Assembly (NCBI GenBank): GCA_951406725.2
Contig: OX597814.1
Coordinates: forward strand, 52,762,001-52,826,000
Length of the DNA: 64,000 bases
DNA from: Octopus vulgaris
Taxonomy: Eukaryota
Direction: 5' to 3'
Both the position numbers and the translations under genes were made by a program. Position 1 is the stretch's first letter; every line of letters starts with the position of its first letter. This document shows positions 43,768 to 63,872 of the stretch, in pieces. Under the pieces are notes generated by a model. That model saw nothing but the letters and a program-made list of their open reading frames with translations, ran no database searches and was not told the origin of the DNA.

Positions 43768-45311
43768 TTAAATATGTTTTGAAATATTGAGTGGAATGAC
43801 AAAATATTTGAAGTATTTGAAAGAAAACTTGAGTTTCTAGTATTTATCAATATTATTTATGGATAAATATCATGTTTGATAGCATATATGATGTACTTTT
43901 TCCAAAAAATGTCCCCCCAAATCATCCTGGGTCCTTTAGGAAAAGTTGGGCCTATATTGCATATTTTAATGCACTAAAACCATTTAAAAAAAATATGTAC
44001 TGATGAAATTAAGGTGCTTCTAATATGCCCTTAGGTCTTTTGTGCCTTCAAAGACGGTACTGTTATTTTCATTTACAATTTTGGTTATGTGATCCCAGGT
44101 AACTCTGATTGAAGATGCCTATGAGCAAACACGTTATGGCTGTGACCATCCTGTCATTTTGTAAGACATTGTGCACCCAAGACATTATCCAATATGACCT
44201 TCTTTTTTAAGTAAGTGAAATATGTTTTATGAGATTTGGCTACTATTTCTAACAGGTCAAATGACTGTGTTCAAACTTCTTAATTGACTCACAACTCTTT
44301 CAGTAAATAAATACATGAAATGAACATCATTATGACTGCAACTAGTTCTAACAAAAGAATGAATTCTTGTAACCATATTTTCAATATATGACAAGTATTC
44401 TTTGGTTTAATATATTAATTTTGTCACTGAGATCTATATATTTTGTCAAAACCTCTCTTAATCTGACTTATCACTGCTAAATAGTTATACTGTAAAAGTG
44501 ATGTTTGAATTTATAAATAAGGGAATATACAGACAAATTATAATTTTGTAGGGGAGCGATGTTGAACTTTAACATGCAAGTAATAATTGCATCATTCATC
44601 TTAAAAGGATAAATGACAAAATTACAATCAGCAAAGTTTGAATTTAGAAGAACTAATACACAAGAAGAAGAACTAATACACAAAGCAAAGTATGTAGGTT
44701 ATCTCCTTTGAATTACAATAAAGATTTCTTATAGTGTCAGAGGTGTACAAAATTGTGTACAAACACATTCAATATATCAATAAAAATATGCACAAGTAAA
44801 ATGAGGCAAATCATAAGGTAAAGAGATAAACAAATGAACGACATATGAATTTCGACAAATAAAACACATGGTGAAAGAAGTGCAGAAAAATGAAATGAGA
44901 CAATAACAATCAAAGAGTGTGTAGATTGAAAATAAATACGGGAAATGGAAAAAAAAAAAAAAGAGGATCTAAAGTTTTGGGTCATACTCTTAATCAAAGA
45001 AAATTAGAAAAAATAAGAAAACGGGTATGAAAAATTAGAAATATAACTTTTGTTTACATTGCAGCCTTGGTGTGTGTCTGAGAATGAGTTGGATGCTTAT
45101 TGCTGCAACAATAGGCTCAGAATTAATATGTTTCACATAGCATTGGTGATAAAGTTTAATTATATTGTAACTGCATATCTATGTTGTGATTATATGTATA
45201 CGTTTTTATTGTTGTTGTGTAATTCTGATATCTTGTATGGCTATACCAGTCAGTATAGTAGCTTGGTATATATAAGGTGAACACCAACACAAATGTCATC
45301 CAAGAACAGCT

Positions 45312-45483
45312 TCAGGAAAGTTTCAGCCCAGTATCTCTGTAAGGTCTTGTTATGATTGTATTCACAAGCTGGTTGCTAAATATGAACACTTTTAGGTTAT
45401 GAGCCGCTACAAGGAAGAAAAACAGCAATGATACATACTGCACCCAACCCCACTTTAGTTGGTACAGTAGGCTTGGAGAATAA
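45312..45483 (-). CDS. TMEM231: TMEM231 exon 7 (YSPSLLYQLKWGWVQYVSLLFFFL...GLKLS*)
   Basis: Homology; the acceptor is inferred to be TG after a U12 branch site, with an in-frame AG alternative starting the exon at 45471. Confidence 0.85.
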
Positions 45484-48400
45484 CAAGGAAGAGTCAAGGA
45501 AAAAAAGTAAACTTTGGAGGGAGAGAAAAGAAATGCTGGTCTAAAGAAAAGCTACAAGTTGAATATAAAATTGATTTAGTATCATCAATGTAATGTTTGG
45601 TTTTCCATGCTGATGTATACTAGATATATTTGTAATATATCTTTCCTTTCAAGTTTTGGTACAAGGCCTGCAATTTCAAGGGGAGAGGGTAAATTGATCA
45701 CACTGACACTGCCCCACCCCACCCAGTGTTTAACTGGTACTTCTTTTATAAACTCTGGAAGGATGAAAGGCAAAGTCGACCTCGGCGGAATTTGAACTCA
45801 GAACGTAGTGGCAGACGAAATGCCGATAAGCATTTCGCCTGGCGTGTTAACGTTTCTGCCAGCTCGCCGCCTAATGTGCTAATGATTCTGTCAGCTCACC
45901 ACTTTATATAATGTAAATATTAATTTCAAATTTTTGTGCAGGGCCAGTGGTTTTAGGAGAAGGAGTAAGTCAATTATGTCAAATCCAGGACTCAACTAGT
46001 ACATATTTTATCAACCCCAAAAGGATGAAAAGCAAAGCCAACCCTGGTGGAATTTGAACTCAGATCGTAAAGAGAGACGAAGTACCCCTAACGATTTCAT
46101 CTGGCGTAATAATTCTGCCAGCTTGCTGCCTTATCTCATGTAAATATCAATAATTGTTTTCTCATTAGAAATGAGATTTAAAGTTTGAAAAATGATTATT
46201 GTATTAACAATAATTTGAAGCTATGATGTACATCAGAATAATAAATTAATAATATGCTATGATGTACATCAGAATAATAAATTAATAAATTTCAGCCAAC
46301 ATTGTAAATCAATCTTGAATTTAATTCACACACACAGTATTGGCTATCTAGATTTATTCTGTACTACATCATAGCATCAAAACCAAACACTGCTCATCTG
46401 TCATTAATATATTCACAATAATTTATCTCAAATATTTAATTTCTTAAGCATTACTCTAGCTATCCTCTTTCAAACCTTCTTTAACCTATCCCAAACTCAT
46501 ATTTTCTCTTTTTGTCTTCTAACCGCATTTATCTGGGAGGGGTTAAACTGGCTCCTATTGCATTCAGTGTCACGGGTCAAAACAATCCATGCATGTCTGT
46601 CGGTGGCCAATTCTGTAGTGTGTTGAAGCCATTCCCAGTTCCAGCATTGAATGTCAAAGACTTGAGGACCAGAAATGAGCTCCATATCTGCTTTGACTGT
46701 TGTGAGCCACGTCTTCAGCTGACCACCTCTCCACTTATGCCAACCCAGGGGAGGATTTGATGCTATTGCCTTCTGGATAATTTCAATATGGGGCACTGCA
46801 ATGTATGACCAAACCACTGTAGTCTCCTTGTCAGAAGAGTTCCCTTAGGAGGTGAGAGATTGCAGTGAGCATAAAGTTGTTGGTTCAAAATGCAGTGTGA
46901 GATACACAGTCAGAGAAGATGATGAATACAGAAGCAGTCAAAGACCTCCAACTTCTGGAGATAAGCAACATGCATTGGTCAGGTCTCACAACCATAGAAA
47001 AGAACTGTTTGGACAAGCACCTGGTAAATACAGCATTTTATAGTGAGGCTGTATTATCCACAACACTACACAACTTTATGTTATTCATAACACCATGTCA
47101 CTCTTCAGCCATCTAATCATTTGAAGTAGGCAGAAACTTCGTGAAAGACTGTTTTGCATAACTGTCCTTAAAGAGTTACGACCACAAATATTTTAGCTTA
47201 ATACAGGGTGTCCCAAAAGTCACTGATAGGTTTCAATTTTTAATAACTTCCTTAACTTTACAAATAAATGCATGAAATTTTGATACAATATAAATGATGT
47301 AATGGAAATTAATATGCACAAGTCAAATTTTGCAACACCACTACATCACATATGAAAAATGGACATTGCTTAAATGGTAGCCATTTTCAGCTTTGCAAAT
47401 TGAAACCCATCAGTGACTTTTGGGACACCCTGTACATACCCAAGTTTCTAGTTGCTCATCTTGATATTATTCTATGTAAATGTTTAACCCATTAGCATTC
47501 AAATTATTGTCAAATGTAATACTTATTCATTTACATTATTTTGAATTAATCATGCTTTATCTTGAAGCTTCAAGATTATGATGATGTGATTGTTTATTTT
47601 TAGAATAACATTATAAGGTATGTGTCAGAAGCCAAATTTGACCAGTTTGAACATAAAGTAGAATATTTGGGCCAGATAAGGCCGGTTTGAATGCTAAAGG
47701 GTTAAGACATGCTATAGTTACTTAGGGGGAATATGAAACTCTATCTCATAAGTTTATAAACCAAGTCTTCCATAGTGTTGTATTTTGGTTGATATTTTGG
47801 ATAATCATCATGCTATCACCAGATCCACATTCAACATAAATTATCACCTATATAACAGAGTTTATCTTCTACTTTCATTAAGTTCTCTATCTGAGCAGTT
47901 CATAGTTTTTAATTCATAATTCATATTTCAAGTAAGAACAACACATACTCTTAGCTTTCGTAAACTATTCCCAGCATTAAAAAATTCTTGCTACACATGA
48001 TAGAAAGTTACATAGCTATTCCACTCAGCTATCAATTATAATACCAAAATGCATGTGTGTGCGTGCGCGCATGCACACACACACACACACACACATGAGA
48101 ATGTTGAAGATGAAGAACTGAAAGAAAGTTGGACAATTTAAAAGGTAATGTCCATAGCTTAAATAGTCTTTCAAAAATACCATTTAATAAAAGAAAAATT
48201 AAGAAACTATTTGCATAAAAGAAAATAACTAAATATAATAAAAAATACACAGAGAGTAAAATGAAATTAAATAAAGATTGAAGAAATTATAGAACTCAGT
48301 ACCTCTGCTGGCCCAGAAGTTTTAAATACTCTAATAATAATTAGAGCCAAGGCGATGAGCTGGCAGAATCATTAGCACACCAGGTAAAATGCTTAGCGGC

Positions 48401-51400
48401 ATTTTGTTCATCTTTATGTTCTGAATTCAAATTCTGCCACGGTTGACTTTGCCATTCATCCTTTTGGGGTTGATGTAATTAACTTTTCCCCTGCTCCAAA
48501 ACTGTGCCAAAGTTTGAAACGAACATTAATCAGAGCCAATAAATATTTTAATTCTAAGGCACTCTTTACTCTGTAATGTACTTAAATATGCCCCACTATG
48601 CTATTCTGTTTTCACATCTGTCACCCTTTTTTGATCAGTAACACCTCAGATTACATCCAAATATCATTTACCTTATTGATAGATTTCTCTTCATTCAGAA
48701 TATTTATTCTCTATGATTATGTTGTTATTTCACTACTTGTATCATAATAGAATCTGCTCTTTAAACTTTACTAGTTGCATACAATATTGACTCTTCATGA
48801 ACTCTCCCACTGAATTTGCCTGGCTCCTCATGTGCTGAAAACCCACATCAAAGATTACATTCCAAGGATCCATGCTATCACTAGATTCACATTCAATATA
48901 AATTATTATCACTTATATAACAGAGTTTATTCTTTTACTTTTCAGTAAGTTCTCTATCTGAGCAGTTCATAGTTTTCAATTCATAATACATTATTTCAAG
49001 AAAGAACTACATATACTCTTGGCTTTCATAAACCATTCCCAGCTCTCTGTACTACTCACCAAATTCACAGACTCCAAATTCAAAATTTATCTTAGTCTTA
49101 TCAATTTCAATCATTCTCTCCAGGTTCCAAATTCAAAAAGGTTGTTTATAAGCTATAATAATAGCCTTCTTCCTCAGAAATGAAAATAACATTAAGCACA
49201 GTGCTTAGATCCCTTCTAATCATAAAGGTATCAAACCTCTACAAATGTCTATTTTCAAAGTAAAATACCAGAATGTATTGACCAGCAGCCACTCAATAAC
49301 TCTGGATTTTATGACTAACATACTTCAAGTCAGCTGTAGAAATATTTTAGTGGAGAGAGAAATTATAGAAAAGGTTAGATTTTCTTTTCAGTCATATGAA
49401 GTTTGTTGACATTTATAACCAAATCCATAATTAGCCAATAAACTGACCAACTGACAAATTGCAGAGTTTACTATCTTCTGAAAGAATTACTAAAGTTGGT
49501 AGGTCAGTGAAAGGATACCTATTAGATAGAAGTAAATCAACAAGAACACCAATTATTTCATAATATATTCTTTGAGTTAATGAAGCCCTGATCTTATTTT
49601 CCTTAATAATTTAAGTATTTTATATTTTGCATGCTGTAGAAAGTCATGTTTTTAATTTTTAATAAACCACACTAATTGCTTGTATCTTAGTGATGTGTGA
49701 TTTGGTTATAATAAAAATTATGTATGGAGTGGTGTGGTTGTGTGGTCAGAAATTTGTGGCTTCTGAGTTCAATTCCAGGTAGTGACCTGAATAATAATAA
49801 TAAGAAGAATTTCCCTAAGACAGCCATGAAGGCTGGAGGGTATATCAACCAAAATGTTGAGTTAACAACAAACAAGATGAGTACAAATATCCATCAAATG
49901 TAAATAATACCCAGCTTACCAGTTTTTAGTCAAACTGTCCAGCCTATGCCAGCATGGAAAACAGACGTTGTTAAATGATGATGATGATGGTGATGAAATT
50001 CAACAAAAAGGCATCCTAATCATGGAAAACTGGATGTAAAACTGTAGTCATTTCATTCAAATTAAGGTGCATTCCAGAAGTTTTGAGACTTATTTTACTG
50101 ATAGTAATTTTAGTATGTCATTACTATACATATTATTACCTGACCTGCTGACTTTTATTTTTCCAGATTGAAAGAGACAGCTGTTACAGCACTTTGAACA
50201 CACTCTACTGAACAGTACTTCTCACAGCGGGCTAGCTTGCAGAATGCAGTTGAGATTGAAGACAATTTAGAAGCTTGCTATGCAATAAAGTTTTGTGTTA
50301 AACAAAGCAAAAATGCTACAGACTGTTCATAGATTAACTTGTATGAGCTGAGCATGTTTTTTGCCGCAAAGAGAGATTCAAGGATAATGGAGAGGAGGTG
50401 AGAGACGATGAGAAGTGTATGCATGTGTGTGTGTGTGGGAAAGAGGGACATCAGGACATCCTGAGAAAATTTGCAATGGTTTGGATGAAGAACACTGTGT
50501 GTCTATAAAGACAAAAAGCATAGATTTAGTGTGGCAACCGTACACAGAATTATTCATGAAGATCTGAACATGCAAAAAATTTATGCAAAGTTTGCTCCCA
50601 GAGTGCTCAGTGATCAACAGAAAGGAAGATGTGCTGGAGATGGTTGAGCTCATTACTTCCAGTCCAAGAGTACTTGAATCTCTGGTGACTTGTAACAAAA
50701 GATGAGCCTACTGTTATGATCCAGAAACCAAGAGACAGAGTGCCCAATGTAAGCATCTTGTCAGTCCTAGACCCAAGAAGGTCAGGCAAAGCAAGTCCAT
50801 TGGGAAGCTGATGATGATCCCTGTTTTTAGCAGCAAGGGTTTCATCTATATCTATTGGGTTCTCTCTGATCAGATGGTCAACAAAGAATACTTTGTGGAG
50901 GTTTTGAGAGAGTTCAGAAAAGATTTTGTTGCAAAAGGCCAGAGCTCTTCCACTTGGGTTGGTGGCACCTGCACCAGGGCAATGCACCAGTCTGCAATTC
51001 CATCCTGGTAACCAACAACTTGACAGAGATAAGCATCAAAACTATCCCTCACCCTCTCTACAGTCTAGACCTTGTTCCTAAGACTTTTGGTCGTTCCCCA
51101 AGCTGAAGGAGAACCTCAGGGGCAGTTCTTTTGAAGATGAAGAAGGCTGTGTCAAGAGTCCTGGATACTTTCACTTTGGAGGACTTCCATGGGGCCTTCA
51201 TGAAGTGGCTGGTGCACTACAACAAGTGCATTGAAGCCAGAGGATCCAACTTTGAAGGAGATTAGAGTTTTGTACTTCTTTGAAATTAGTAAATGTATCT
51301 CCTGAAAAAGTTTCAAAAATTCTAGAATGCACCTCAAATATATTCATTTGTCTTATATTCCTTTTCCCAGGCTAGCATGGTTTAAACAAGAACATATTAC

Positions 51401-54400
51401 TGAGGTATTGTTTTACAGCCAGATGCCCTTCCTGTTACTAACCTATCTTACAAGTAAAGGTGTTTTCATTCCACTTGTCTTCAAAAGTAAAGAACTTGCA
51501 AATGATTATTGACAAATATCAATATTACCATCTACAGTTCAGTGCTTTTTTTATATGAATTGTCGAATGTAAATGTACAGATGCACGCTTCTGCTAGCAT
51601 AGAAAAATGAATGAGAAACACACAAATGAATGATTAAAAGGATACATAAATTCTTGCCATGGGTATTTAATGTTCACTGAAATAATAAATGGCATTTTGG
51701 CCCCACGTCCAATGGTCCAAGCATAGTAAGGTTCTATCAATTTGGTGGTCACTGGAAAGAAACAGAAAATTTAGTGCACTGTTATGATAAGGTAAAATAT
51801 AACAAAACTGATTTCATTTTGTATTTATTTTCTCATGATAGCATGGGTGTGATGGTTTTGAGAAATGTTGATGTTTTAAAAATTGGTGACAGGATGAGCA
51901 TCTAACTGTGCCTGAAGTCATTGTACTTGGGAACTTTATCTTTATTGCACATGGCTCCTCTTTCCTCTTGTATTCCTTTCAACCTGAGACTGGTGTCTTA
52001 AACACAAATTCATCTGTCATCCTGAAATGTCTGTACTAGTTCATATCCAAACCTAACCATATCTCAAACACATATTCTGACATACCAGACAACTGTGAAC
52101 TCTTTCTACAATTGGATATTTCTCTATCACTAAGAGTAGTATAAATCTTGTTGTCAATGAGTTAATTCTTTCTGCTGTCAGCATTATGTGAAGGCTACCA
52201 CTAGATGTAATTGTTTTAACTGAAAATCCTTATGTCAATTAGTTATTTTTGTGTAATCTACAGCTGCTGGCAATAGTGTAATATGCTTTTACATATAACT
52301 TTCTTGAACTGTTTACTATTCAGTATAGAAGTTCAAGTTTGAAACAAGATGGATGATAAAACATATATAAACACCATATATTATGAAAGAGATTGTCAAT
52401 TTCTTAATTATTTGACAGGCGATAAAATTTGGTTAAAACAATTTTCAGACAAAAGCTTTTATAAAATTTATACTAGAACACATATTTAACCACAGCTCAT
52501 ATATTTCTCATCCTTGCACACTTGTAGATAGATGTTAAACTGATAATAATGATGATTTCAATGCTTTTTAAACAATATATTTGTGAGAATAGGAATGATG
52601 ACATTAATAACGTGCTGAATACCACTTTCTTTACTGCACATGTAAAAAAAAAAGCAATAAATATGAGCTATGTAAAAAAATTGCCAATGAGATATTTGAC
52701 AAATAAATCAAGGTTATTATCATGTTTTGATACCTGTCCACTCACATAATGCGCCCCAGTTCAGACTACCAAACTACCAACACAACAAATGTCCAGCTCT
52801 AATAAATTTCATTTTCCTAGTGGTTAATTGATGGTTGTAGGAGCAATTTATCTTCTAGAGGTAATTCAAAAGTTGTTTAACATATCTCTTTTGTTTATGA
52901 TTGCATCTGAACTAAGATAATTACTAGTTCTAGGAATATGGAGTTAATAATATAGGAGTTTTTTGCAGAAATATAAAACCTGGAAATGTTTAGGAAGCTA
53001 AGGAAAATGACACCTCATCTTGGTGGTCTAAAGTGAGAATGGTAATGTAAGCAGTCTCAACTAAGACCAACCATGTAGGTGGTTTAAACTAAAATTAGGC
53101 AAATAAGTGAACTAAACTGAGACTAAACTAGAACATGTCAAATAGGTTGGTTACACTGAGAAATGTAGCATTATATCAAAACAAAAAGTTTGGCTATATT
53201 AGGACAAATAGATAAATCAAAATAGATGAAATTGGTGGAGTAAACTAGTAAGTGGAGTAAAGAATGGCAGCTAAGGAAGTTAAAGTAGCACTTCTCAGGA
53301 GATTAAATAAGGATGAATAGATGGCCAAAATTATAAAAATAAAAATAATCTAAAACAAATAGGGGAACTAAATAAAGAAAAGTGAGTGACTAAAATAGAG
53401 CAAATAGGGGAAAAGACTTGGACAAATAGGTGATTAGACTAGGACACTCGACAGGTGTTAAATGAAGCAAGATATTGTTCCTCCAGCAAATTTTTACAAA
53501 AGAATGAACATACCATTTCTTTCATGATACTTCTTCAGGATATTAGACAAATCATAAGCTGAGGCATATACACTGTCAGAATCAATTATGGATGTCTGGA
53601 AATGAATGGGAGAACAGATTGAATTATATACATTGAAAGTATGTTAGTTAATATATCTCATGAAATATTGCGTCAAGATGAATTATATAACATAGAGCTT
53701 GTTTTACAGCAATTTTGCATATCTAATCATCATCATCATCATCGTTTAATGTCCATTTTCCATGCTATCATGGGTTGGACGGTTCGACCGGAGTCTGGGA
53801 AGCCAGGAGGCTGCACCAGGCTCCAGTCTGATCTGGCAGTGTTTCTACAGCTGGATGCCCTTCCTAACGCCAACCACTCCATGAGTGTAGTGGGTGCTTT
53901 TTACATGCCACCGACACAGGTATCACAACCACAATTTCCATTTGATATTTATTTTGATATGATTATAAGTATAATTTCCATATTCTTTGCTTGGTTATTA
54001 TCATTTAAGCAAAATTGGTAAAATGTTGGATAAAATCTCATATACTATTGCATTAAGTCCCAGAGCCAAAAATTGGAGCCAGTGAAGTACTGAGATCAAT
54101 TAAATCAACCATATTCCTCCCACTAAATCTGAAGTCTTGAACATATACTAGAAATGATCACCTCCTTTTGTTCTTGTTAACCTCATTAGAACCAACAATA
54201 CAATTGTCATTGTCCTCATATACCAGCAGCACAATAATACTCATTACTCATTATTATGTCTATATCATTGCCGATGTAATATTCCTCTTTCTCCTCTTCC
54301 CTCCATTGCTACCACCACAACCACCACCCTCACAACTGTAGTTAACATTACCAATCATTAGTCTGCAGTTGATGACTTATGACTGACTGACATTGGAAAG

Positions 54401-57478: not shown

Positions 57479-60400
57479 CAATAAATATATTATGTGTTAT
57501 GTATATGAATTAAAACTTTAAAAAATTTCATTAAATATCTTAAAATGGAAATGAAATTACAGAAAGATACAGGAAAGTAAAATAAATGTCAATCCTCTCA
57601 TTTGTCTGTCTCTCTGCCAACATGATTAATAAGAAGCAAAATGGCTTTTAGAAGGAAAAGAAAAAAATAATGAAACAAAAGGCTGTCCAAGGAAAAGCTT
57701 AAAGTCTAATAAATTCACAGAAAAATTACTCTGTTAAAAAAAAAACAGAAAAAAAAACTCATCAAAAAGACTAACTCGCTTTTATTGTGTTTATTTTCTT
57801 TTTTGTAAGAAAGGACATTCAGTCTACAAGAGGTGAATTTCTAGCTAAAAGGTATTAGTGACACAAAATGTTTGGAAATTCTTCACTGAAGAAAATTCTT
57901 CACTGAAGAAAATTCTTCTAAGATATATGATAAATAGGGCAGTGTTGTCTTGTTAAAAATTACAGCATAATGTTTGTTGTTTTGATTCTGAAGTGGATTT
58001 AATGTGTGAGTGTAGATCAGACAGGACCTTTTGCTAGAAACAACAGTCCAAATTAATGCTGTCACAAATATGAAACCAATGTTAAAGCTCTAACAATGAG
58101 TATTGGTATGAATTACCAAACTTAACTGTGTGATAATATTTTTAAAGGTCATGGAGTTTTAGTTGCATTAACAGTTGTTGCTATTTTTGTTAAGCATCAG
58201 GTTGACTCTTACTGAGAAGACATGTTAGAGGTATTTCATCTGAGGCCATCACTTTTCCTCATTTTTTAAATATTAAGTATTACAATTTCTGAAGTATAAA
58301 TATTCTGTTTTTTTCTAGTGGTTGTTCACAAAAGGAAAAAATGTTGCAAGCATTGGGAAAATGCATGAACGTTGCTATTGCTCTATTTTGTTGAGCATGG
58401 CTTTCTTCTTGCTGTGCTTGGAAACAATCCACATAAGTAGTCAGTAAATAACTATTACAGACTTACCAATCACCACAATCTTCCAATAACCTTATCTTTA
58501 ACATGTTAAAAGTGTTATACACAAATGTTCACTTGTCATACACTCAAGCTGGGTTATCAATAGTGGTCCATATAACAAACATTCTCTTAGATACAGATTC
58601 AGTGATGTTTAGCAAATGAAACATTAACCTCTCTCCTCAAAAGAGGATATCATTTCAGCTTTCCATAATGGGAAAATAGCAGTTACAATCACCATCACCA
58701 TCGTTTAGCATCTATTTTCCATGATGGCATGGGGTGTATGGTTTGACAGGAGCAGGCCAGTTGGAGAGTTGTCCAGATTCCAGTTATTTGTTGTGGCAAG
58801 GTTTCTATGGTTGGATGCATTTTACATGCCATCATTACAATAGTAAACAAAATAAAACAAATATTAAAAGAAGAGGGTGATTTATCTGTAGTAGAAAGGA
58901 GAACAATTACATCATTAAACTTACGTTAAACCGTATATTATTGCCTTTATAGTGAAGTGGTATTCTCTGTACAGTTTCCAATGTACCATACACATTTATT
59001 TTGGCACCTGGTATTACAGATGAATGATGAATATATGCCATAGAATTCATAGTTATTGAACCGTGCTTCTGCAAAAAGAAAGACAATAAGGAATTTAAAT
59101 GTCATGTTATATAACCCATTAGGAACATTACTAAATTGATTACTACAGTAACTTGCTATTGCTATTTATTAAGTCCTGAATAGGATTTTGAACTTAGCAC
59201 AGCAAGGCAACAAAATACTTGAGAATTAAAGTGTTTTCATGGCATTACAACTGACAGTTAAGCACATGGAGGGTTGTATGTCTTTGCCAGTGCGAAGATA
59301 TGAACCCTCAATACCTTAGTTGATAGACTGGTATGCTATTGAATTGAGTGCGTGCAATACAGTCAATATTTTAAAACAAAAAGTCTGTTCATGGGTAAAA
59401 GGCTGGCGATTTGTATCTAGTGGGTTTGTTACTGAAAGCCAGTGTCTTGAGATTCATGCTGAGTGTTGATAGCTAGTAGAGTGGTAATCTATACTTGGTG
59501 GAAGCACATAAGTCATTGATAGCTACTGAACTGATTGTTGATAACTAGTGTATTGGGAGTTTGAAACAAATGATATATTTGTTGACAGATTGTAAGGTAC
59601 TAAAATTCTCCTGAAATTAAATACAGAGAAAAATACTTCATAATAAATATTACCTTTCACGAGTGCCTTGAATATTGTTTTCAAGTCTTACTAAAAAACT
59701 AAATACATTTAACCCTTCAGGATTCAGATTACTCTTTTAAATGTAATGCTTATTTATTGTTTTGAATTAATCATGTATTATCTCATAGCTTTGAGATTTT
59801 GATGAGGTGACTGTCTATTTTTAAAACGACATTGTAGGGTATGTGTGAAAAGCCAAATCTGGCCAGTTTGAATATAAACAGTTGGAATATTAGAGTTGGA
59901 TATAGCCAGTTTAAATACTAATGGGTTAATGCTGCCCTACTTTCTTACTGCTAAATGAGGTAAAACAGAGAATTTCTTGCCACTGTGGAAACCATGCCAT
60001 TTCAAAAAGACTTGCCAACCCCACAAAATCTTCTTATAACCCTATCTCTTAACATGTTAAAAGGTGTGATACACAAAATGTTCACTTGTCATACATTCAT
60101 GCTGATTTCCAAAGAGTAGTCCATATAACAAAAACATTTTACATACATTATCCTGTTTCTGTTACAGGTTATCAATTGAAGGAGGTTGTTGAGTGTGAAT
60201 CAATAGAGTTAAAACTGTTTCTAATTTCAATGATATGAAATATTCAATACTGAACTTACATGCAATTCATAATGGAAAAACAGTAACATTTCAATGGCAA
60301 CGACATTTTCTGAATCATATAGTGGCACTTCAAGGGTAAGCTGTAAGTTATCCAATTTCCCATCACCATTTATGTCTTCTTCCACTGACTGCAATATTTA

Positions 60401-63050: not shown

Positions 63051-63872
63051 TAAAACATCAAATGTTTTGGTGTGTGGCTTCTGACTCTCCCTGTACTATA
63101 GAACTTAAAAAATACTGCAGCAAAATAAAAACAACAAAACAAAGTAAAATAATAGAAGTTGAATAAATCTACTCCTCCGTTCATAAATATATCAGAACCA
63201 ATTGTATCATAGGCTGAGGGAAACCTGCTGCTGGTAATCATGTAATCCAGTACCACTTGCTCCAAGACAAGTAGTTGGTGATTAAACTGGACTCCTACTA
63301 GGCCTGCCCAGTAAGTAGGGAGTGTGGAACTTTAGCAGAATAAAAACAAAACCTGTTAAAAGTAATGAACTCCTTGAGAGCCAATGACACCCCTTTCTTG
63401 AGGAGGAAATGGGTGCTACCAGGTTTACCAAGCCCAATGAGAATCATCATCATCATCATCATCATCGTTTAACGTCCGCTTTCCATGCTAGCATGGGTTG
63501 GACGGTTCAACTGGGGTCTGGGAAGCCCGAAGGCTGCACCAGGCCAGTCAGATGTGGCAGTGTTTCTGGAAGTGACAACTTCTATACTGGGTTGATTGAA
63601 AGCCCAGGAGTGAAGAAGATTGGTAAAAAAAAAATTTAGGTACCATAATAACAGAAATGCTATGTGAATGATTTTAGTTTTCATCAATATGAGTTGACTT
63701 ACTTTTATCAGTGGAATCCTTAGGGAATTTTGTTGTAATTTGTTGTAATTTTCAAAAGTACTGTATGTGACATATGACTGAGTGCTACCAGTAGTATATA
63801 AAAGAAAAAGCAGTTCCTTTTTGAATACAATTTTTGGTTGATCTCTGAAACGAGCATCACTAATCCAAATAC
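45312..63872 (-). CDS. TMEM231: Transmembrane protein 231 (ciliary transition zone, MKS module), exons 2-7; exon 1 outside the window
   Basis: Six phase-compatible exons (170, 129, 144, 82, 106, 172 nt) whose translations follow the recalled human TMEM231 order, e.g. EEDINGDGKLD~EEDRNQDGKTD, MNSMAY~MQSMAF, YHERNVTT~YQERNVTT, WVQYVSLL~WVQYVSIL. Confidence 0.93.
45647..46130 (-). mobile_element. Two adjacent SINEs with a Meta-domain-like core
   Basis: Head GGCGGCGAGCTGGCAGAA...GAGTTCAAATTCC, core GTCGACTTTGCCTTTCATCCTT; further copies at ~21530-21705 and 48350-48520. Confidence 0.75.
46500..47100 (-). mobile_element. RTE-type LINE C-terminal relic
   Basis: GWHKWRGGQLKTWLTTVKADM...ELATDRHAW. 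Confidence 0.65.
47204..47432. mobile_element. Tc1/mariner MITE
   Basis: TIRs CAGGGTGTCCCAAAAGTCACTGAT / ATCAGTGACTTTTGGGACACCCTG with TA TSD. Confidence 0.92.
47488..47701. mobile_element. TTAA-flanked piggyBac-type MITE
   Basis: TTAA|CCCATTAGCATTCAAA...TTTGAATGCTAAAGGG|TTAA. Confidence 0.85.
49760..49910 (+). mobile_element. Truncated tRNA-head/hammerhead PLE unit
   Basis: GAGTTCAATTCCAGGTAGTGACCTGA(AAT)n...ATGAAGGCTGGAGGGTATATCAACC. Confidence 0.75.
50063..51336 (+). mobile_element. Full-length but decayed mariner element
   Basis: ~28-bp TIRs (AGGTGCATTCCAGAAGTTTTGAGACT / AGTTTCAAAAATTCTAGAATGCACCT); fragments YAIKFCVK, AKFAPRVL and HPLYSLDLVP. Confidence 0.85.
51646..51751 (-). CDS. 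TMEM231: TMEM231 exon 6 (VTTKLIEPYYAWTIGRGAKMPFIISVNIKYPWQEF)
   Basis: 106 nt, ttccag acceptor, U12-type donor GTATCCTTTT. Confidence 0.92.
53514..53595 (-). CDS. TMEM231: TMEM231 exon 5 (TSIIDSDSVYASAYDLSNILKKYHERN)
   Basis: 82 nt, ttccag / gtatgt. Confidence 0.92.
53727..53918 (-). mobile_element. SINE 3' part with (GAT)n tail
   Basis: Reverse complement of 42662-42822. Confidence 0.8.
55060..56990 (-). mobile_element. Decayed CRE-clade non-LTR retrotransposon (RT + restriction-like endonuclease)
   Basis: Minus fragments GVQQDDLHGPLLF, VWYLDDVTLAG, QQAKLPVKFSGLG, HATLN and LHGNAFAV. Confidence 0.75.
57044..57255 (+). mobile_element. SINE 3' part with (GAC)/(GAT)n tail
   Basis: Same family as 42662-42822. 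Confidence 0.8.
57387..57505. repeat. AT-rich palindrome centred on (TA)n
   Basis: 29-bp perfect arms TATACATAACACATAATATATTTATTGTA / TACAATAAATATATTATGTGTTATGTATA. Confidence 0.9.
58925..59068 (-). CDS. TMEM231: TMEM231 exon 4 (KHGSITMNSMAYIHHSSVIPGAKINVYGTL...IRFN)
   Basis: 144 nt, ttgcag / gtaagt. Confidence 0.92.
59713..59925. mobile_element. TTAA-flanked piggyBac-type MITE
   Basis: Homologous to 10206-10422. Confidence 0.8.
60260..60388 (-). CDS. TMEM231: TMEM231 exon 3 (SVEEDINGDGKLDNLQLTLEVPL...FHYELH)
   Basis: 129 nt, ttgcag / gtaagt. Confidence 0.92.
60505..61668. mobile_element. Inverted pair of 5'-truncated PLE units (GIY-YIG tail, tRNA-like head, hammerhead)
   Basis: Minus copy 61180->60505 and plus copy 61190->61668; same family as 1-1322. 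Confidence 0.88.
61577..61620 (+). ncRNA. Minimal type I hammerhead ribozyme with both core boxes intact
   Basis: ACAC-CTGATGA-A-GGCTG-GAGGGTATAT-CAGCT-GAAAT-GTT-GTGT. Confidence 0.75.
62443..62697. mobile_element. hAT-family MITE related to 19902-20190
   Basis: Degenerate TIRs CAGTGGTTTGCAA / CTGAGAACCATTG; TSD TTTTAAAC / TTCTAAAC. Confidence 0.8.
63443..63567 (-). mobile_element. SINE 3' part with (GAT)n tail
   Basis: Same family as 42662-42822. Confidence 0.75.
63703..63872 (-). CDS. TMEM231: TMEM231 exon 2 (IWISDARFRDQPKIVFKKELL...LRIPLIK)
   Basis: 170 nt, tctcag / gtaagt. Confidence 0.92.

Follow-up and report, generated by a model that had tools for sequence, protein, structure and literature searches.

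Where does the last coding exon of octopus TMEM231 begin, and can the intron in front of it end in TG? The question arises in a 64,000-nucleotide (nt) stretch of Octopus vulgaris DNA (assembly GCA_951406725.2, contig OX597814.1, positions 52,762,001 to 52,826,000 of the forward strand), hereafter the window, in whose numbering positions are given and in which TMEM231 lies on the minus strand. An earlier interpretation of the letters by themselves (the sequence-only reading) had proposed that intron 6 of this gene belongs to the minor (U12-type) spliceosome and either ends in TG or has a TG/AG tandem acceptor that yields two isoforms. In the current study, we found that the GT-TG junction of intron 6 is real and genomic. 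The intron spans 51645 to 45484 on the minus strand (6,162 nt, phase 2), and we consider it very probable that it is cut from the GT at 51645 to the TG at 45484, likely by the U12 spliceosome choosing its 3′ end by distance from the branch. The elements on which this account turns are the following.

51646..51751, minus strand: exon 6, 106 nt (Pfam TM231 positions 223-255, E value 0.0056, under the curated cut-off when taken alone)
51636..51645, minus strand: U12-type 5′ splice site GTATCCTTTT, directly 3′ of exon 6 and exactly at the contig junction
45493..45503, minus strand: U12-type branch sequence TTTTCCTTGAC, with 45494 as the predicted branch A
45484..45485, minus strand: terminal TG, 10 nt past the predicted branch A
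45472..45473, minus strand: first downstream AG, 22 nt past the branch A, in frame, with loss of YSPS if used
45312..45483, minus strand: exon 7, coding part and stop (Pfam TM231, E value 3.2e-10)

The last base of exon 6 is 51646 (phase 2), and the open frame of exon 7 starts with Y-S-P-S. The coordinates, the U12-type donor and branch, the phase of exon 6, the start of exon 7 at 45483 and the 10-nt spacing had all been put forward in the sequence-only reading and hold, as does its description of the first AG (45473-45472, 12 nt farther downstream). As for its further statement that no AG or AC lies at a usable distance, the acceptor candidates 5 to 29 nt past the branch include an AT at +14 and an AC at +27, both of which would shift the frame, and the AG at +22, which keeps it but lacks support. 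Across both strands of the window (128 kb), we counted 10 donor-like and 7 branch-like motifs, and one of each lies precisely at the observed junction.

Transcript and genomic evidence for the junction

Eight of 24 sequencing runs were compared as assembled contigs, a form from which rare isoforms are dropped. Among the contig joints listed for runs X3, X8 and X13 (studies P2, P4 and P5), contigs of all three transcript-like runs (3/3) link 51646 straight to 45483, free of gaps, with the junction at adjacent record positions 535/536, 447/448 and 1809/1810, respectively. In each of them, the depth of the exon-7 bin equals that single spliced contig. A fourth transcript-like run, X20 (organism C), contains a contig that ends at 45483, at a depth of 65 and with 853 more letters upstream, and its depth is zero across 45486-45629. 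The sequence-only reading had set the join 51646 to 45483 beside the join 51646 to 45471; the transcript-like contigs show the former only. They also extend beyond the coding part of exon 7, to at least 45030. Joining exons 2 to 7 at 51646/45483 yields a stop-free and gap-free frame of 266 codons whose product shares 99.6% identity with P0016 of O. sinensis and 91.4% with P0001 of O. bimaculoides, and in the RefSeq proteins of both species I-Y-S/T-P-S spans the junction.

The TG is likewise found in DNA. In four genomic runs from as many studies (X7, X14, X16 and X17, under organism labels A, B and C), contigs cross the acceptor, and no difference is listed at the TG or the branch. Base 45485 had been singled out by the sequence-only reading as a possible sequencing error; because all four genomic runs carry TG, we rule out an assembly error at this position. 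In the comparison that included X20, one or two differences per record are unlisted, but any difference at 45484-45485, which is far from the contig ends, would be listed. Runs X14, X16, X17 and X20 share four differences from the window (at 45144, 45161, 45276 and 45390) despite their labels B, C and A. A sister lineage is their likely source; the three genomic runs among them keep the TG.

Other ways of arriving at such a junction were considered and rejected. Of 13 slides of the junction (−6 to +6), zero shift alone reproduces the same mRNA, which rules out a junction slid to canonical ends; the longest word shared near the ends is 5 nt, and no repeat lies at the junction itself. Adenosine-to-inosine editing cannot convert TG to AG, and as a means of rescue it was ruled out by contigs that are unchanged at the junction. 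Finally, a processed gene copy was ruled out as the source of the contigs, as TMEM231 is a single-copy locus with one match in the genome.

Splice signals and competing explanations

The intron combines an RTATCCTT donor and a U12-complementary branch with a U12-type orthologous intron, in a genome that holds all four minor small nuclear RNA (snRNA) genes. Genome matches over the Rfam cut-off numbered 2 of 3 for U12, 5 of 5 for U11, 43 of 43 for U6atac and 1 of 3 for U4atac. The U6atac matches fall at 43 places on many contigs, compared with 3 for U12, 5 for U11 and 3 for U4atac, and the surplus probably consists of dispersed retrocopies. In silico, the donor forms a duplex of −8.5 kcal/mol with the 5′ end of the genome's own U11 and of −7.2 kcal/mol with U6atac. 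The window's other four donors, ordinary GTAAG or GTATG sites, give +0.4 to −2.1 kcal/mol (U11) and −2.0 to −3.9 kcal/mol (U6atac). The branch motif TTCCTTGAC, at 45501-45493 on the minus strand, is the best pairing site for U12 snRNA in the entire 6,162-nt intron (−12.8 kcal/mol; the next best gives −10.5). The proposal of a GT-TG U12-type intron is backed by spliced contigs, genomic contigs, snRNA pairing and human U12 orthology.

These signals suggest how the 3′ end might be chosen. U11 and then U6atac would pair with GTATCCTTTT, and U12 would pair with TTTTCCTTGAC, bulging A45494. The sole G within +1 to +21 of the predicted branch A is that of the TG, at +10; since a 5′ G would prefer a 3′ G (or T) as its partner, a distance-driven choice would take this first G, and ligation would take place at the TG. 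The AG at +22 lies beyond the optimum of 11 to 13 nt reported between branch and 3′ end in U12 introns (PMC3584512). Selection would then hold the register, given that use of the AT at +14 would break the frame and use of the AG would cost an invariant Tyr. An interaction of the intron's first nucleotide with its last is mentioned in PMC2831892, and among U12 termini GT-AG and AT-AC splice best, while AT-AN and GT-AT also work (PMC1557818).

Several points weigh against this account. The branch-to-end distance of 10 nt, equal to that of the human ortholog, is short for a U12 intron, falling at the lower margin of the range and at or just under the 11-to-13-nt optimum (PMC3584512). The A at −2 is held to be highly conserved on the basis of mutant data (PMC2831892), and the TG site of TMEM231 may therefore splice inefficiently. 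The last 62 nt of the intron are 77% pyrimidine, with most of this in the branch motif or upstream of it, and U12 introns typically lack a distinct polypyrimidine tract (PMC3584512). A public gene model from the same assembly (P0017) joins exon 6 to an AG at 49519 and not to 45483, and in runs X3 and X8 a depth of about 4 in bin 49362-49589 is unexplained. All of the runs are assembled contigs, the RNA label of the transcript-like ones is a guess, and the support from X20 consists of the position of a contig end. Dependence on the minor spliceosome is inferred, and A45494 is a predicted branch point. Furthermore, the direction of the terminal change is unrooted, and among cephalopods the intron end was read in this octopus.

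The AG 12 nt downstream invites two other explanations. In one, 45483 and 45471 are both used to a meaningful extent as a TG/AG tandem, and a second isoform lacks YSPS just before the last transmembrane segment. We regard this as unlikely. The AG is in frame, contigs lose rare variants, and alternative and error-prone 3′ choice has been reported for U12 introns (PMC3584512), but a contig end at 45471 was found in none of the four transcript-like runs (0/4, judged by bin depths and contig pieces), and 22 nt separate the AG from the branch. Its use would also remove Y258, found in 125 of 125 aligned rows (three of which owe the Tyr to mis-spliced models), and P260, found in 123 of 125, and no protein of the four-member octopus cluster shows a YSPS deletion. 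Thus, of the two options offered by the sequence-only reading, the GT-TG intron stands, whereas the tandem with two isoforms gained no support, given the lack of a contig at 45471 and the loss of the invariant Tyr, though low-level use of the AG may escape contigs, which drop rare variants. The other explanation, which we hold to be extremely unlikely, invokes the major spliceosome: U2AF would set the AG at 45473-45472 and ligation would occur at the upstream TG, as in certain human U2 introns. The pyrimidine-rich 3′ region would suit it, and the AG, 12 nt away, is inside the 28-nt limit reported for such pairs (PMC2374985). It is difficult to reconcile, however, with a donor that pairs with U11 and U6atac and reads GTATCC, where the four other donors have a U1-type GTAAG or GTATG, or with a branch motif that is U12-type at U12 spacing in an intron whose orthologs are U12-type. 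Moreover, U2 TG sites have been reported only as alternatives (PMC2374985), and the octopus TG is the only site seen. The guessed RNA label is what speaks for an artefact, be it an assembly error at 45485, a reverse-transcriptase template switch or contigs derived from a processed copy. This reading is largely refuted already, and its probability is practically negligible: the TG is kept in genomic contigs of four studies, no slide is possible (the 5-nt word being the longest shared near the ends), the genome has one copy, and the frame is restored at the junction, which coincides with a human intron position.

The model P0017 raises a further possibility, namely two-step removal of the intron, or removal along competing routes. 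The site concerned is the following.

49509..49520, minus strand: internal AG followed at once by a second U12-type donor motif (GTATCCTTTC); the acceptor in public model P0017

Splicing of exon 6 to the AG at 49519 would regenerate a U12 donor, GTATCCTTT, which would then be spliced to the weak TG. We think this highly unlikely. If true, a minor intron would be spliced recursively, and the TG would serve as a rate-limiting switch that decides between full-length TMEM231 and a product without the last transmembrane segment. In its favour, an AG joined to a perfect U12 donor motif arose in 0.2 to 1% of 2000 simulated introns, a comparison made post hoc; P0017 uses this junction and places two small exons here, at about 49518-49449 and 49334-49296; and X3 and X8 have the above depth of about 4 in this bin. 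No U12 branch-like motif was found near 49519, the nearest one listed upstream being at 50067; no contig with an exon 6-49518 junction was seen, nor was there extra exon-6 depth in X3 or X8. X8 also has other intronic cover at a depth similar to that of bin 49362-49589. Because there is no upstream U12 branch and no second contig in the exon-6 depth of these runs, we read the P0017 junction as the product of a gene predictor forced to GT-AG.

Orthologous introns and catalogued GT-TG introns

The statement in the sequence-only reading that human TMEM231 is a minor-intron gene was correct, and the human intron lies at the same codon position. It is listed at chr16:75540175-75541349 as AT-AC (PMC8280824 supplement). 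As in octopus, the next exon opens with TTAT and 10 nt separate the branch A from the intron end, and the listed flanks, from which phase 2 was read, translate to V-I-S before the intron and Y-Q after it, which is the alignment position of F-I and Y-S in octopus (PMC8280824). The two introns differ in that the human one is AT-AC and 1.2 kb long, whereas that of octopus is GT-TG (G-type) and 6.2 kb long. Given these termini, the subtype has switched between the two lineages, a point missing from the sequence-only reading. The human intron is also sensitive to CENATAC, its retention being 0.24 in controls and 0.71 after 48 h of depletion (PMC8280824 and PMC6717393 supplements). The mouse intron has the same AT-type donor (PMC6717393 supplement), the zebrafish intron is retained upon U4atac knock-down (PMC9992838), and TMEM231 is classed as a minor-intron gene (PMC7507305 and PMC9992838).

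A motif scan of metagenome contigs returned 64 loci, 61 of which are TMEM231 (L020, L040 and L063 are not). At the position of octopus intron 6, 24 of the 64 have an intron that ends in AG, and in 23 of these 24 a listed branch-like motif, clear or decayed, is situated 11 to 13 nt upstream of the intron end. Wherever exon 6 was found (5/5 loci), the donor is GTATCCTTT, in phase 2. A further 37 loci have continuous coding sequence there or an intron nearby, as judged from translations, with seven loci inspected closely. In a group of 23 loci (18 distinct sequences), exon 7 is closest to the mollusc proteins compared, with top matches of about 62 to 66% in the four loci tested. Eight loci (L012, L016, L018, L026, L028, L034, L061 and L071) have a decayed branch, TCTTAT or CCTTAT, where their relatives keep CCTTAAC; judging from these letters, a U12-to-U2 conversion is possibly under way in them. 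No donor of these eight introns was found within the loci. No squid or cuttlefish protein was among the matches listed in the homolog searches (the best 120 of 316 in one of them).

The simplest history would start from an ancestral U12 intron, present as AT-AC in mammals and as GT-AG in other animals, whose −2 position changed from A to T on the octopus lineage. Alternatively, the TG end may have originated through local duplication of TTCCTTG from the branch motif. This word occurs twice on the minus strand, 11 nt apart (45501-45495 and 45490-45484), and the tail of the second copy is the TG end. Either way, one orthologous intron is found in three states, AT-AC, GT-AG and GT-TG, which suits it to tests of how the minor spliceosome chooses 3′ ends and of how CENATAC sensitivity relates to the first nucleotide.

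GT-TG termini are rare and already on record: they account for 0.039% of the conserved minor introns of animals (29 introns), for 15 introns in plants (PMC10639083 Table S1) and for one mouse intron (PMC1557818 Table 2), and they are named among G-type introns, with rows for TEPSIN and GOLGA7 (PMC8280824). The catalogued GT-TG U12 introns share with that of octopus the RTATCCTT donor, a U12 branch near the 3′ end and a one-letter departure from GT-AG at −2. What sets the octopus intron apart is that its junction is seen in transcript-like contigs, as the only form, and in a cephalopod. The U2-type TG-AG tandems of GNAS and other genes (PMC2374985) likewise have a TG as their 3′ splice site close to an AG, which in octopus is 12 nt away; those, however, belong to the major spliceosome and are always alternative sites, while the octopus intron has U12 signals and TG as the only site seen. 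No published account of the octopus intron was found in the literature searched, a scope that leaves per-intron tables outside, and the accessible parts of PMC4176328, PMC7367187 and PMC11347168 do not mention it under the terms searched. Since the species set of PMC10639083 includes O. sinensis, the 29 may already contain this intron or the O. sinensis ortholog. We therefore present it as a new, well-supported case of a known rare U12 subtype, with no new mechanism. Its value is that of a clean natural example, supported at the transcript and the genomic level, of a minor-intron subtype that is among the rarest, and it shows that the A at −2 can be lost where branch spacing is kept.

Gene structure, gene models and intron content

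The remaining exons and one further element of the intron are as follows.

53514..53595, minus strand: exon 5, ordinary GT-AG flanks
58925..59068, minus strand: exon 4, ordinary GT-AG flanks
60260..60388, minus strand: exon 3, ordinary GT-AG flanks
63703..63872, minus strand: exon 2, ordinary GT-AG flanks
L073:2200-2340: exon 1, outside the window, about 2.2 kb beyond it
50706..51008, plus strand: transposase fragment inside intron 6 (Pfam Transposase_1, E value 4.8e-06, 26.8 bits, cut-off 24)

Four exons of the window were scanned with Pfam TM231; exons 2, 4 and 7 scored over the curated cut-off and exon 6 under it. Exon 7 encodes the last hydrophobic segment (windows from about residues 273-276), and it is this segment that is lost from three public models, all of them wrong at this intron through mis-splicing or read-through. 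P0017 runs into the intron, as described above. In P0018, from O. bimaculoides, the donor is read through and the junction codon encodes Met, which implies a G at donor +1 in that species too. The Pomacea model P0010 also ends Y-P-F at the junction, as would be expected for read-through of a U12 donor. The unusual termini thus explain why the models P0017 and P0018, of the ortholog of a ciliopathy gene, are in error.

The first 16 codons of the read-through peptide, corresponding to the intron start at 51645-51597 (minus strand), are identical to those of P0018, in proteins that otherwise differ by about 9%. Judging from this stretch, the start of intron 6 may be unusually conserved between O. 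vulgaris and O. bimaculoides. As for the rest of the intron, the sequence-only reading had described it as 6.2 kb long and full of transposons, which is broadly right: DNA depth exceeds 1000 in 17 of its 27 bins, compared with about 60 for single-copy DNA, and one of the three intron frames tested matched Pfam Transposase_1.

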